Position numbers and translations under genes: made by a program. The notes below the pieces were generated by a model. The model was not told the origin of the DNA. It worked only from the letters and a program-made list of their open reading frames with translations, and made no database searches. Source: Vicugna vicugna (lineage: Eukaryota). From it: 64,000 bases of DNA. Shown here piece after piece: positions 1-20,587 of the stretch. The DNA lies in the NCBI GenBank assembly GCA_013265495.1, contig MU057640.1:124001-188000 (forward strand). The letters are read 5' to 3'. Position 1 is the stretch's first letter, and every line of letters starts with the position of its first letter.

Positions 1-447
1 TTTTAATCTTCCCAAATCTCTAATTAATATGATACAGTCACAAGAGTAACAACAAAGGGGACCCACACTAAACTTAAGAGATTATATCACCATTTTACAG
101 GTCAAGAAATGGAGGCTTCGAGAAGTTGGATGATTTGCCTAAGGTCATGAAGCCTGTGAGTTTTTCCAACTAGACAGACCCTGGGCTATACCGGCAAGAT
201 CTGATGGAGATCCAGGCGTCACTATCCACTGACTGCCTGACCCTGGGCAAGTCTCAGGTCTCTGAAGCCTGAGCTTCCCCATCTGTAGAATGGTGGTAAC
301 AAGGCCCTCCAGGCTGGGCTGTTTGGAAGATTACAGGTTAGGGATGGAGACGAAGAGCCAGCTGACCTCAGGGTTTTGGCTCCAACAGGCTCAGCCCCCG
401 GCCCCGGATCCCTGTCCCACCCCCAGTCTGGGGAGGAGGGGCCTCAC

Positions 448-925
448 CTGTAGGAGGAGCTGTGGGAGGGTGGTGCCGGTCGGCCTGCGTCTCTGCTCAG
501 TCCAGGGGCACTGGGCCCAAGCTCCTGGCCCCGGGGCTGTTCTCCAAAAGCCTGTCTGCGGTCCACTGCCCCTGGCCCAGGCTCTTGGTCTCGCCACCAG
601 AGGCCACCAGAAGGCAAGGGCTTTCTCTGGACCATGGGCCCCGTCCCATGTCGGCTGGCCTCCTGCCGGCCCCTAGGACCACTGCCGTCACCATCTGTGT
701 GTGTGCTCTGGCCAGAGGTCCCAGGCTCAGGTCGGCGGGGCCTGTGTTGGGCCCCCCGACAGCTGTTCACACACTCCTCCTCCGAGGCAAAGTTATTGGC
801 GTTGCCGTGGCAGCCGCCGTACCAGAAGCGGTTACACTGGCCCACGGAGGCGATGAAGTACCAGCGGGCAGCCCAGTCGGTGCAGGAGCCGTGGGCACTG
901 GGCAGCAGGCACCGCACGGGGTATG
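448..925 (-). CDS. PAPLN: PAPLN exon 19: Kunitz/BPTI domain plus linker
   Basis: ctcag|CA TAC CCC...TAC AG|gtgag; YPVRCLLPSAHGSCTDWAARWYF...FWYGGCHGNANNFASEEECVNSC; 478 nt. Confidence 0.96.
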
Positions 926-1912
926 CTGAGGGGCGGGGAGGGCGCAGGTCATCAGGCCCAGGAACGAAGCTGCAAATGCTGCCCAGCAGAGCCCTGCCGG
1001 AGAGCGCCCTCCATCCCCTCGGCCCCAGAATTAGGAGAGAGGCCCTTCCCAGTTTAAAGAGCATGCCTACACCCCCACCTGGCCCCTGACCGGCCTTGGG
1101 CTGGGACTCTAGCAGCCTCCAGAATCAGTCCTGTCCACCTGCGCCCCCAGAGCAAGAGCCCTCCAGAAGGTCAGGGCCATGAGCTCCCCGGACAGGCTCC
1201 CTCATGCCCCTCCCCAGCCCCCTAGCGCCCCCACAGAGCAACTTGAGGGCTAAATCTTGCGAGCTTAGCTGACAATAAGGACTCAGCCCTGAGCCCCCAG
1301 AGGCCTTTGAAGATGCCCAGCGAGGGGCCTGCCCTTGTTCCCAGGGCCCTTCACCAGCCTCTGAACCTCCTCCAGCCCCCAGCCTGCCTGTAATAACAGC
1401 CTCGCCTCTCTGCATTCAGATGTGACCACAGCTGGCTCCTGCTTAAAGCCTGTCCAGGTGCCCAGCCTTCTGCAGACTCTGACCACTAGCCTGTCTGGCT
1501 TTCAACGTCCCCATGATGCTCCCTGGCAGCTCCTCCTGTGCACCCTGTGCTTTGACCTCAAAGTCCTCCCTCTAGGACTCATCCCAGGTAGGGTGGAGAC
1601 ACTGACCACCCTGCCTCTGGAGGGGGCTGAGCCCAAGGGCAGCACAGGCCTTCCTTCTCCATAGACTCTTCTCTGACAAGTCTCCCCAGCTCCCATAAGC
1701 AGCCAGGCAGCCTAACTACAAACTGTTGGACACGAGAACCATCTGACACCATTCTCTGGCCTGGCACCTAGTAGATGATCAGTAAGTATTTGTGGAAGAA
1801 ATGAACAAATAACTGAGCTGGTATTGTCTTTGGCTCTGGGTGGAGTGGGGTGGGGGACACAGTGGAACAAGCGCCAACCCACCAGGAAGGACGAGCAGGG
1901 GCACCCACTCAC

Positions 1913-2036
1913 CATAGCTGGGCTGGCCCACACAGCCTTCCCCAAGAGGGCCGGCCGCAGAGGCCACGTTGTCATAGCAACAGCCGAACCGGGAGCCCCG
2001 GCATTCACTAGGCTCATTCTGCTGGGCCTGGGGAGC
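1913..2036 (-). CDS. PAPLN: PAPLN exon 18
   Basis: ccccag|GCT CCC CAG...TAT G|gtgag; APQAQQNEPSECRGSRFGCCYDNVASAAGPLGEGCVGQPSY; 124 nt (acceptor slightly less certain). Confidence 0.9.
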
Positions 2037-2372
2037 CTGGGGAGGAAGCCCAGGGTTAGGAAGTTGGAAACAGATCTGGCTATAGGTTGCTGAGGGGCAG
2101 GATGGCAGGAAGAGAGAGGGACAGAACTGTGAATCCATGGTGCATAACCCCAGTTCTGGGAGGAGATGAGAGGTCAGGAGAACGTCAGATGAACCCCCCA
2201 ACTCCAGCCCAGGCCTGTCACTGAAGCCCTGTGCCCTGGAGAGGGTGGCCCAGGCCAGCAGGCTCCAGAGCCCTCCTTTCTCCAAGGCCAAAGCTGCAAA
2301 GAACCTGGGTCACAGTGGCACTGAGCAGGCTTGAGGGCTGGACTTCTGCCCCTCACATGACCAGACACTTAC

Positions 2373-2493
2373 TATGGAAGCCACCGCTCTCGACCCTGGC
2401 CTGCTCCCGGTGTTGTCACCTCCATAAGACCTTGCACAGCCAGCTTGATGGGGCCCCTCAGCCACAGACACGCCGTCAGAGCAGCACCCGAAC
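2373..2493 (-). CDS. PAPLN: PAPLN exon 17
   Basis: tctag|G TTC GGG TGC TGC...TCC ATA|gtaag; FGCCSDGVSVAEGPHQAGCARSYGGDNTGSRPGSRAVASI; 121 nt; not in the ORF track. Confidence 0.93.
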
Positions 2494-3507
2494 CTAGACA
2501 GACATCACACAGCCCTCCCCTCACCACCCAGGCCTGAACCCTACCCTACCAGGGTCCCTGAGCTTCCAGCATCCCAGGATTCCAGGCCCTGAGGCTCCCT
2601 GAGCTGGGAGCTCATCTGGCAAAGACCTGAGTGGGGACAGTCTGTCCCTGTATGCAAGGGGAAGCATTTTGCTTACCCCAGTCTGTCATGTCCACTGGCC
2701 ACCTAGGGGCTACCAAAAAGGGCAGCAGTAACTCAATAAGCAGAGCTGAACTCCCAGTAAATGACAGATTCTCAACTCAAAAGTCCCACCGTAAAACAGA
2801 GGAGGGGGATGTTCACCTGAGCCTGCCCAAATGCCAGGTTCCCAGGGAGTTTTTACAAAATAGCAGCAGATAGGAGATGGGGCAGAAAAGGGTATCAGAG
2901 GAGCCCACCACTTATCTCACCTCCACCAACAGGAGTCAGGAAGGAAGTTGAAAGAAGGAACGTATCAAAGTGCTGTCTATGTGCCAGGCACATGTGATTT
3001 GTTTCATCTTGACAGTAACCCCAGCCAGTGGCTGTCATTGTTCCCAATTCTCAGCAGAGAAAGCCAAGATCAGAGAGGTTAAGTAAGTTTCTCCAAGTCA
3101 CCCAGCACATAGCTGGTAAGTGGCTGAGCTAGGAATCACCCCCAGGCTGCTGGCCCAGAAGTCTAGGCCCTTAGCACCCAGCCCCTGAGGGAGTGGGAGC
3201 CTGGTTTGGATCTGAGAGTTAGAATCATACTCCATTTGTCTTCCCAGCACTTTAGGCTACATCTCAACAGTCTGACTTCTTTAGAGACGGCAAGGGTTTT
3301 CACACCGCCTGCTTAGCACATTAGGGAGCTCAGCAAGAGGAAGCCAAGTCCTCAAATGACACGATCGGAGCAGCTCAGAGTCCCGTTCCTGAGCTCTGCT
3401 AACCCACCCCACCCCTTTCTGAGCAGAAACACTGTCCACCCCATCATACACCCCACAACCAAGACACACCTCCCATTTTGACTTGGTGAGGAGGAAGAGG
3501 CACCCAC

Positions 3508-3763
3508 CTGCTCTGCTGACATGAGGCCCCCAGACAGCCTTGCCACTGTGGCCCAAGAGATGCAGTGTGGCCATCAGGGCAGCACCCATAGGGGCTGTGT
3601 CTGCAGTCACGGGGCCCTGAGCCAGACCGCAGGGTCTGCTGGTGTGAGGACTGCTGCGGAGACAGGGCTGGGCCCAGGGCTGGCAGATGGGAGCTCTGGT
3701 CTCCTCTGGGGTTACCCTGAATTGAGGGTTGCTCCTGGGATGCCCACCACTGATTTCTGGAAT
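3508..3763 (-). CDS. PAPLN: PAPLN exon 16
   Basis: tctag|AT TCC AGA...AGC AG|gtggg; SRNQWWASQEQ...DCRHSPYGCCPDGHTASLGPQWQGC; 256 nt. Confidence 0.94.
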
Positions 3764-3929
3764 CTAGAAAGAAGAAGGGAACAAAAGACATATGATGTAT
3801 CTGCCTGGCTCGTCACCCTCCACCTGTGTCTACATCACCTACCTATCTCCATGCCCCAAAACCACTTGCCCCCACCCTCCACCTCCATCTCCAGGGCCTG
3901 AGGTTGGGGGCTTCCCCTGAGCTTCTCAT

Positions 3930-4010
3930 CTGAGGCAGGGGTCTTCCGAGGGCCCAAAGGCATCTAGGGGTTCCTGGGGCTGGTGCGCACATCCTGTGCG
4001 CTGGGGACTT
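3930..4010 (-). pseudogene. PAPLN: Degenerate PAPLN exon 15 (pseudo-exon): in-frame TAG and donor GT>AT
   Basis: ctgcag|AA GTC CCC AGC GCA CAG GAT GTG CGC ACC AGC CCC AGG AAC CCC TAG ATG CCT TTG GGC CCT...TCA G|atgaga; resembles recalled human EVPSMQDVHTPASNPWMPLGPQESPASD; 81 nt, phase 1-1. Confidence 0.85.
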
Positions 4011-4949
4011 CTGCAGGGAGCCGAGGCAGTCAGAGCAGAGGGAAGGAGGAGAGATGGGCCCGGACAGCGGCCACCCCCACCAATGTTTGCTCCCACCCCA
4101 CTGCTCAGACAGGACCTGGAAAACCCAGGACAGCAGAAGTGACAAGGAGCAGATTTGTATTTTCGTAAACACCCTTCCCAGGTTTCAAAAGCGTCTTTAA
4201 TCACATAGAAAATACTAATACTACATGTTTAGCCGAAAAGAAAAGCCAGATATAAAATTAGCATCTATGTTTGATCCCAACTATATAAAACAAACAAAAA
4301 TGATACACAAATATTTTCCAACTAGATTGATGAAAAGACAAACAATCCCGTTAAAAAATGGGCAATGAACTTGAACAGACCCTTCTCCAAAGAAGATAAA
4401 TAAATGGCCGACAAGCACATGAAAGGATGTTCAGCAGCATCAGTTGTGAAGGAAACGCAAATCAGAGCCACAAGGAGACACCACTTCACATGTAAACGGA
4501 AGGCTCTAACGCAAAAGACAAGTAACAACTGTTGGCGAGGGTGCAAACAAACTGGAACCCGCAAGCACTGCTGGTGGGAATGTAAAACAGTGCAGCCACT
4601 GTGGAAACAGCCTGGCTGTTCCTCATAAAGTTAAACAGAGTTACCATGTGGCCCAGCAATCCCAATTCTAAGTCCGCACAGACACTGGTACGTGACTGTT
4701 CATAGCAGCATTCTTCATCATAGTCCGAAGGTGGAAACAACCCAAACATCCATTAACAGATGAATGGACAAACAAATTGTGGTACATCCATATAATTCGG
4801 TGTGATTTAGTCATAGAAAACAAATGAATAAATACTGATAAATGCCACAACTTGGATGAACCTCAAAAACATTCTTCTAAGTGAAAAAAGCCAGGCACAA
4901 AAGGCCTGCTCATTCCTTTTTATATGCCGTACCCAGAATTGGCAGGGAG

Positions 4950-4986: not shown

Positions 4987-5282
4987 GAATTGGCAAACCC
5001 ACAGAGCAGATCAGGTTACCAGGGAAGAGGACTGGGGTTAACGGGCAGTGATTATTTAATGGGTACTAGATGCGTTTATGGGGTGATGAAAATTTTTGAA
5101 ACTAGAGGAGAGGTGGTGGTCGTACAACATGGAGAACACACCAAATAACAGCACACTGTGCCCTCCAGAACGCCCACTGTGTGTGATGTGAATTTCACCT
5201 CAATAATGAGTCCATATTAAAACCGACTGGACTGATAGATGAAAAGGACAGACAGAGAGTAGATGATGAAAAGGCAAACATA

Positions 5283-5366
5283 GGGGGAGGGTATAGCTCA
5301 AGTGGTAGAGCCCATCCTTAGCATGCACAAGGTCCTGGGTTCAATCCCCAGTACCTCTAATTTAAA
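5283..5366 (+). mobile_element. tRNA-derived SINE (camelid Vic-1-like)
   Basis: ggggagggtatagctcaagtggtagag...ggtcctgggttcaatccccagtacctc with A/B boxes; TSD gaaaaggcaaacata / gaaaaagcaaatata. Confidence 0.85.
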
Positions 5367-8033: not shown

Positions 8034-8175
8034 CTGGAGGAAGATGGCAGGGCTGCGTGTTACAGGGCTCCGCATCTGCAGGCTTCGACGGCAGCAGGCT
8101 CTCGCAGTGGCTGGGTGGCCCAATGGCACAGACCACCTGGCGCCTCCGAGTGCCTGAGCTGCAGCTCTTGGAGCA
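8034..8175 (-). CDS. PAPLN: PAPLN exon 14 (TSR)
   Basis: ccag|TGC TCC AAG...CCA G|gtaag; CSKSCSSGTRRRQVVC...CNTQPCHLPP; 142 nt. Confidence 0.95.
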
Positions 8176-8377: not shown

Positions 8378-8557
8378 CAGACCCCAGGCGCCTACGTGCC
8401 AGGCCTGGTTGCTGAGGGGACAGTCGTCACGCACACAGGGCTCAGTAAGGGGGGGACGGTCCTCCAAGGAGCACGCCGTGGCATGAAGCAGAGACCCCTC
8501 GTCACCCCGGCAAGTGATGCTCCGCCTCCGGACTCCAGCACCGCAGCTGACAGAGCA
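8378..8557 (-). CDS. PAPLN: PAPLN exon 13 (TSR)
   Basis: tacag|TGC TCT GTC...CTG|gtgag; CSVSCGAGVRRRSITC...WHVGAWGL; 180 nt. Confidence 0.95.
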
Positions 8558-9237: not shown

Positions 9238-10182
9238 CTGGCAGGAAACAGGAAGCCGGTGAGGCTGGCCTGGCAGCAGGGGCCAAGGCCCAGGCCTGAG
9301 GGGGTACCAGCTCTCACACGCAGGCAGAGGGGGGACCCTGACCCAGCCCATCCTCTGAGCATCGGGCCGTGCAGGTGAGGAGCAAATAGCTTTGCACAAA
9401 GGCCAAAGTCCAGCCCAGGTTGCTGTCTCCTACCACTGTGTGCTGGTCCTGACAACATGGAGCCGGCTGCCTCCCTCAGTGTTCCTGTCCTCACCTGCAT
9501 CCCCCCCTCTTCTCTCCAGATCCCCTGTCACCCCTAACCAGACTCCATTCCCTCCGGGTCAGACCTTAGGGGCGTCTCCCTGAGGGGCCGTGCTCACCCG
9601 GGTGTGTGGAGTGGCTCTGCCTGGCCCTGGGGCCCAAGGACCCAGAAGAAAAGGCCACCCACACTGCACATGCAAAGCCAAGCCCACCACCATCCCAAGA
9701 GACCAGCTGCCACCAAGGCTACGGGGTGGAAGGACTACACAGCCCATCAGGGAGCCTGTGGCCATCGGATTACCTGTTCCCGCACACACGCTGGGCCCCA
9801 GCAAGGTGCCACGCTCTGGGCCGGTGCAGGTAAGAGGTCCTTTGTGCACGAACAAAGGCATTACCAACACCTTGGCATCTGACAAGTTCCCTGCTGGCTC
9901 AAACGGGTTCCTCCGGTACCTCCCCAACCCTCCTGCCACCAGCCTGGACATTATAGGCACTGTGTGGACTCACAAGGGTGGACAGAATAGCCCGGGGTCT
10001 CGTGCTCAGACCCCTCCACTGCCTCCCCGCTGACAGCTGCCTCTTCCCCACTCCAGCCACTTCTGTGAGGAGCCCCTCAACCTCTTTCTTTGCTCCACAA
10101 CTAAAGCAGCTGAGGGACCCCACTCCCTTCCCACCAAGAGCTTGGACCCCACATGGGCAGAGGGAGCTAGCAAGGGCCTCAC

Positions 10183-20533: not shown

Positions 20534-20587
20534 CGAGGACCCGGGCGCAGGGGCCAGCAGCAGAGGCACGAGCAGCAGCAGCCGCAT
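20534..20587 (-). CDS. PAPLN: PAPLN first coding exon (signal peptide); exon probably begins at 20598
   Basis: ccgcag|gcctggccgagATG CGG CTG...TCC TCG|gtgagt; MRLLLLVPLLLAPAPGSS. Confidence 0.94.

Follow-up and report, generated by a model that had tools for sequence, protein, structure and literature searches.

A probable pseudoexonised cassette exon in an otherwise intact papilin gene of South American camelids

Exon 3 of TNNI3 is reported to be pseudoexonised in shrews and moles and alternatively spliced in bats, and the authors of that work propose that skipping came first and decay after (bioRxiv 10.1101/2023.05.19.541292). According to the same preprint, known phosphorylation sites lie in that exon; the loss was verified at both the mRNA and the protein level and linked to heart rate. 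More generally, weakened splice-site recognition has been reviewed as a standard route of exon loss and splicing evolution (PMC12992808, citing Wang et al. 2015), and the case described below is one instance of lineage-specific exon loss, the general class treated in that review. Mutations of canonical splice sites are reported to give mostly single-exon skipping, and strong sites to favour splicing at cryptic sites (PMC6060985). Our locus encodes papilin (PAPLN), in vertebrates an ADAMTS-like matrix protein (PMC10850197).

Like TNNI3 exon 3, the PAPLN exon considered here is a small in-frame exon with both splice-site and coding lesions in a gene that is otherwise intact, skippable in related lineages and apparently lost more than once. 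It is a coding exon in the outgroups, its lesions lie in the exon and its splice site, and the rest of the gene is sound. Unlike TNNI3 exon 3, it is known from sequence and annotation, and the function of the motif it carries is a guess. We consider it probable that this exon is a pseudoexonised cassette in a working papilin gene. The earlier note that drew attention to it overstated its novelty, since the skip is already present in the RefSeq models and six mammals other than camelids and bats also have annotated skip isoforms. What appears to be known already is the set of RefSeq skip models; a literature search at the level of titles and abstract starts brought up no paper on this exon or on camelid PAPLN.

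The PAPLN coding region occupies positions 448–20587 on the minus strand of the window (the whole 64,000-nt stretch that was analysed) and comprises 17 intact modelled exons and the dead one; eight more exons lie past the low end of the window. The gene model consists of 18 segments counted from the ATG at 20587. A GT donor follows each of the 17 other modelled exons, and AG precedes each of the 16 that follow an intron, the first exon being counted from its ATG and therefore not scored for an acceptor. The upstream neighbour of the dead exon (8034–8175, minus strand), which carries the last thrombospondin repeat, ends in HLPP and forms the donor side of the skip junction; the downstream neighbour (3508–3763, minus strand) starts with DSRNQWW and forms the acceptor side. 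Splicing of 8034 to 3763 yields HLPP-DSRNQWW and 867 stop-free codons to the end of the window, and inclusion of the dead exon puts a single stop at codon 557, ahead of 12 further coding exons. The earlier description of a frame-neutral skip among otherwise intact exons therefore held in full.

The skip model equals the alpaca protein XP_072819476 at 867/867 residues within the window, and the remaining 378/378 residues map exactly onto the eight exons past the window on the same contig. By protein comparison, the downstream exon is 100% identical to Vicugna pacos papilin and 96% identical to Camelus ferus papilin. Pfam searches of the protein returned the full papilin set: TSP1 repeats, ADAMTS cysteine-rich and spacer domains, Kunitz, Papilin_u7, Ig and PLAC. 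Vertebrate papilin has the same domain set as found here; both alpaca isoforms are without the 27 aa that follow the last TSP1 repeat. A genome search, the tally of which is a lower bound, found no second close PAPLN copy. As judged from these alignments, the locus is PAPLN of a South American camelid, and its reading frame is complete at 1245 aa once the dead exon is skipped.

Several other features of the gene model were noted. A 66-nt cassette exon at 9774–9839 (minus strand) supplies the 22 residues by which alpaca isoform X1 is longer (TSYLHRPRAW...). This exon, open and followed by a GT donor, lies outside the main gene model and is present in Camelus and cattle models too. Where exon 1913–2036 (minus strand) begins, camelid papilin lacks five residues that the human and cattle proteins have (ASI-APQAQQ versus ASTVHNTHQPQAQQ), which suggests an acceptor shift or a small deletion common to alpaca and Camelus. 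Near residue 481, exon 8378–8557 (minus strand) shows a deletion of one codon in comparison with Camelus. The 4-kb intron that lies upstream of the dead exon holds, at ∼5280–5350 (minus strand), a short interspersed element of tRNA-like type, which we take to be the camelid Vic-1 SINE.

The dead exon itself (3930–4010, minus strand) spans 81 nt or 27 codons in phase 1-1, lies directly after the last thrombospondin repeat and translates as VPSAQDVRTSPRNP*MPLGPRKTPAS, the asterisk marking the stop. All elements reported earlier for this segment were re-read exactly. The in-frame TAG (3964–3966, minus strand; codon 557 of the included form) stands where Camelus and human have Trp, and the human peptide quoted in the earlier note agrees with two human database proteins, P0044 and P0119. 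The donor (3928–3929, minus strand) reads AT for GT in CAG/ATGAGA. Using the U1 pairing energy, a crude proxy for splice strength, we obtained −4.4 kcal/mol for this donor versus −7.5 to −12.5 kcal/mol for 18 other PAPLN donors, and the AT donor retains 6/9 matches to the consensus. The acceptor ...ctccctgcag (4011–4035, minus strand; AG at 4012–4011) is intact, with CAG at its end, 14/20 pyrimidines upstream and a CTGAC word that resembles the branch-point consensus. The segment differs from the Camelus coding exon at only 2/27 residues, so that its likeness to an exon is not due to chance. We infer that the ancestral donor was GT, because Molossus models that read through the boundary have Gly, as expected for G/GT, where the window gives Asp.

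Across 88 distinct versions, mean identity to Camelus is 61% for the exon versus 79% upstream and 71% downstream, which makes it less conserved than the exons on either side; it has no cysteine. No Pfam family covers the exon in the Camelus protein among the best stretches listed. The two changes in 27 codons compare with 0.35 expected at the gene average (P ∼0.05), one of the two being the stop that drew attention to the exon. In dog, fox and muntjac models the exon is extended by 29 residues upstream via another acceptor; in the window, within 4011–4120 (minus strand), a similar TTTTCCAG is present ∼105 nt upstream.

Assembly errors at one or both lesions would provide a trivial explanation, which the sequencing runs make highly improbable. 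The share of 387 sampled 31-mers over 400–4100 that was present came to 1.00 in 13 sequencing-run rows of the main organism, whereas a run without both lesions would show a share of ∼0.98. These rows represent 11 samples from seven studies; nine are flagged as a possible source of the DNA, and four, from two studies, are unflagged. The probability that word sampling missed both lesion sites is 0.008, and 0.15 for either one alone, so that the test has only ∼85% power per single site. DNA of a second organism gave a share of 0.99, which fits the absence of one lesion or an unrelated variant and excludes the absence of both. Moreover, both alpaca RefSeq isoforms read HLPP-D-SRNQ, with the exon skipped and no low-quality label. 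They are placed on a 96-Mb contig versus the 2.3-Mb contig here and thus come from a different assembly, although such XP models, being predicted, may have taken the skip over from other species.

To place the exon among other papilins, we collected 417 proteins, of which 51 missing one flank and two short ones were dropped. Among the 364 informative proteins, 324 carry an insert of 24–33 aa at this position, 11 skip it and 29 are otherwise different (P0372, an alignment artefact, is tallied under the last class). All 15 listed Camelus models, from three species, include the exon with its Trp, so the stop is younger than the Camelini–Lamini split, as a lesion specific to this lineage, the earlier proposal, would be. 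Camel and alpaca are reported to have separated ∼16.3 million years ago (PMC5577142), and the donor change is presumably younger than this split, too. The deer papilin P0054 belongs to a protein cluster that also contains presenilin-1, and its 290 members are not a papilin count.

The dominance of inclusion in the 15 Camelus models is also what could speak for a gene that is effectively dead or strongly hypomorphic, with skipping too rare to sustain it and PAPLN at an early stage of pseudogene formation. We regard this as very unlikely: the 1245 codons and the splice sites that were examined showed no further lesion. Of the 36 differences from Camelus ferus over 1245 aligned residues, 13 fall to the alpaca side, 17 to that of the camel and six are unpolarised, which indicates no excess decay of alpaca papilin. 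Neither unavoidable lesions nor gene-wide decay, the marks of a unitary pseudogene, were seen, and on this evidence PAPLN here is not a pseudogene.

The 11 skip forms, all annotated predicted models, are from alpaca (two), Eptesicus fuscus, Pipistrellus nathusii, P. kuhlii, macaque, warthog, pig, gray whale, minke whale and Peromyscus californicus. Including isoforms also exist in warthog, pig, minke whale and Peromyscus, and in gray whale as a partial protein. This distribution suggests a cassette that was skippable in the ancestor and mostly included. Skip proteins outside camelids and bats amount to six among the 364 informative ones; with skips so rare elsewhere, ancestral skipping may have been minor. 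A 1251-aa primate isoform was considered as a further skip form and rejected, as it is another 27-aa exon that the orangutan protein of 1251 aa is missing.

Bats merit separate mention. The Eptesicus and Pipistrellus models lack the exon (vesper bat set: P0018, P0085, P0132, P0131, P0022 and P0133–P0137), a Cnephaeus model has unrelated filler at its position, and in six Myotis models the exon start is altered and four residues longer. A second, independent loss or decay of the exon has probably occurred in vesper bats. In 6/12 listed Molossus and 6/10 informative Rousettus models, the donor lies 60 nt further down, which points to instability of this donor in several lineages. The normal exon end seems changed in Rousettus, where the junction residue is Asn or Ser (Rousettus and Molossus proteins: P0055, P0259–P0267, P0029 and P0287–P0297).

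Our preferred reading, a pseudoexonised cassette, would unfold as follows. In the South American camelid lineage, a +1 G>A change would have removed U1 recognition of an ancestral cassette that was presumably already skippable, and TGG>TAG would have taken away the coding capacity of the exon. Productive mRNA would join 8034 to 3763 and encode the 1245-aa papilin, in which the linker from the last thrombospondin repeat to the first CC-DG repeat would measure 57 instead of 84 residues and be devoid of the VPS(M)QD motif. Transcripts that use the intact acceptor, through a cryptic donor or a retained intron, would carry the stop and be subject to nonsense-mediated decay, the usual fate of such transcripts when the stop lies far upstream of the last junction, as codon 557 with its 12 downstream coding exons does. 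Two observations run against this reading. The intact acceptor together with a strong in-frame donor 87 nt downstream argues against a clean skip, and the deep conservation of the motif speaks against the exon having been dispensable in most lineages. RNA rows gave word shares of 0.47, 0.45, 0.38 (kind uncertain), 0.24, 0.19 and 0.19; they were left out of account, since the shares do not tell skipping (0.234 expected), inclusion (0.248) and retention (0.301) apart. A search of shorter proteins gave 20 matches, with best identities of 60–86%, and no run-derived camelid protein across the junction among them.

The downstream donors bear on a second reading, the main alternative, in which the loss is leaky and has created a new poison exon: the acceptor would be used with a cryptic donor or a retained intron, a substantial share of transcripts would carry the TAG and be degraded, and the dose of papilin would be lowered in addition to the shortening of the protein. 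Two cryptic donors lie in frame, a GC donor 60 nt downstream (GGG/GCAAGT, 3864–3869, minus strand; U1 duplex −6.7 kcal/mol) and a GT donor 87 nt downstream (TAG/GTAGGT, 3837–3842, minus strand; −11.0 kcal/mol). The resulting exons of 141 and 168 nt contain no stop other than the TAG, so loss of the regular donor by itself need not have silenced the exon. The +87 site comes close to an ancestral-type donor (−11.1 kcal/mol) and exceeds the median of the real donors (−10.3 kcal/mol); its use would, however, leave an intron of just 79 nt, and the corresponding extension is absent from the 364 informative proteins. The +60 position is the one employed in the Molossus and Rousettus models mentioned above, but it offers only a weak GC donor here. 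Moreover, the stop is lineage-specific and not conserved. In classic regulatory poison exons, the stop-bearing state is conserved across species; here the exon is coding in Camelus and other mammals, and by this comparison the PAPLN exon is not a conserved poison exon. Old exons that trigger nonsense-mediated decay are reported to be regulatory in some instances (PMC2697156). Overall, we view a newly arisen poison exon as conceivable but rather unlikely.

Occasional inclusion could also be envisaged if the AT donor were still used as part of an AT-AG intron, or if A-to-I editing restored both G>A positions. AT-AG introns recently derived from GT-AG introns, and edited AT donors, are described in human (PMC4176328), and each of the two lesions, read on the sense strand, is a G>A change. 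The U1 pairing of the AT donor is, however, far below that of every real PAPLN donor, and unedited inclusion through it would yield only the stop. With respect to editing, we found no convincing duplex partner, as 3/20 and 1/20 shuffled controls equalled the best candidates, and 0/3 inverted repeats touch either lesion site. Rescue of this kind is accordingly most improbable.

Within the reading as a pseudoexonised cassette, the earlier note had put donor loss probably first and the stop second, an order that the data do not favour over its reverse. Under assumed branch lengths of 0.01–0.03 substitutions per site, the neutral probability is 2.5–8% for a stop and 4–11% for a change in any of the four bases that make up the splice dinucleotides; with such similar odds, neither order is favoured by chance alone. 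A point for donor loss first is that a stop would be close to a null allele as long as the exon was mostly included. If, on the other hand, a fallback donor such as those at +60 and +87 was used after the regular donor died, the stop was not neutral then, which counts against donor loss first. The reverse path, with the stop first and donor loss then selected for forcing productive skipping, is equally open.

The start of the lost exon is an exception to its lower conservation. The earlier note had described the loss of a Pro/Ser/Thr-rich linker; the lesions were confirmed, but the term linker undersells a segment whose first residues are conserved as far as ray-finned fish. Positions 3991–4010 (minus strand) hold the relic of an (E)VPS(M/I/V)QD motif, here EVPSAQD. 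In 104 distinct mammalian linkers, positions 6–11 after the cysteine of the last repeat are V in 97, P in 104, S in 102, M/I/V in 91, Q in 92 and D in 89. A search with bonefish papilin recovered the motif in 103/120 proteins, nearly all from fish and including bichir and sturgeon, and in the same register, at position 6, in 102 of the 103; the query itself carried the motif, which biases this count, although the searched region also held flanking domains and recovered motif-less proteins. Asp at linker position 11, found in 89/104 mammalian linkers, also occurs in 101/112 proteins of the fish search with PS at positions 7–8. No tail like VPS(M/I/V)QD follows the other repeats of human papilin. 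At the hydrophobic motif position, Camelus has Thr and this genome Ala; together with the altered exon start in Myotis, this may mean that constraint had eased before the loss in both groups.

The Gln-Asp pair makes the motif a candidate site for BMP1/tolloid-type proteinases. BMP1 is reported to prefer Asp at P1' (PMC3186203) and, in LTBP1, to cleave an L↓D bond that lies in a flexible hinge as well as a Q↓D bond (PMC2064503). The papilin motif shares with the LTBP1 sites an Asp as possible P1' residue, its position after Gln and its location in a segment between domains of a matrix protein that is secreted. Its weak points are that a P1' Asp is a weak signature and that ruminants have MPE, squirrels VQN and pangolins MQA at the corresponding positions. 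A title-level search found no paper on papilin as a BMP1/tolloid substrate; cleavage sites in papilin may figure in degradomics tables of proteases. For a human papilin isoform, the AlphaFold model is of low confidence throughout (mean pLDDT 40.8) and uninformative about the linker, and the best 60 PDB matches listed include no papilin structure.

On this basis we put forward, as a speculation with a small chance of being correct, that the lost exon was a proteolytic switch dating from the bony-vertebrate ancestor, with a BMP1/tolloid-type cut at VPS(M)Q↓D freeing the N-terminal, ADAMTS-like half of papilin from the Kunitz/Ig half. If so, optional skipping in other mammals would produce an uncleavable isoform, which South American camelids and Eptesicus/Pipistrellus would have fixed independently. 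A stop-bearing transcript that escaped decay would then encode a 556-aa secreted protein that ends nine residues past the predicted cut and is thereby nearly the same as the released fragment. Equally well, the motif could serve in glycosylation or binding, or form a structural tail to the last repeat.

As an event, the loss is ordinary: in-frame exon loss is a recognised process, and the RefSeq alpaca protein is already without the exon. The concern of the earlier note that homology-based annotation could miscall the gene was overstated, given that RefSeq skips the exon in 2/2 isoforms and does not label them as low quality; pipelines projecting a reference isoform could flag PAPLN as an uncertain loss, a class taken from the TOGA2 preprint. 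The value of the case lies in a natural deletion in mammalian papilin, a little-studied protein, in which the removed piece opens with a motif kept from bichir and sturgeon to human. Camel and alpaca form a ready pair for addressing the function of this motif, and vesper bats seem to provide a second, independent loss.
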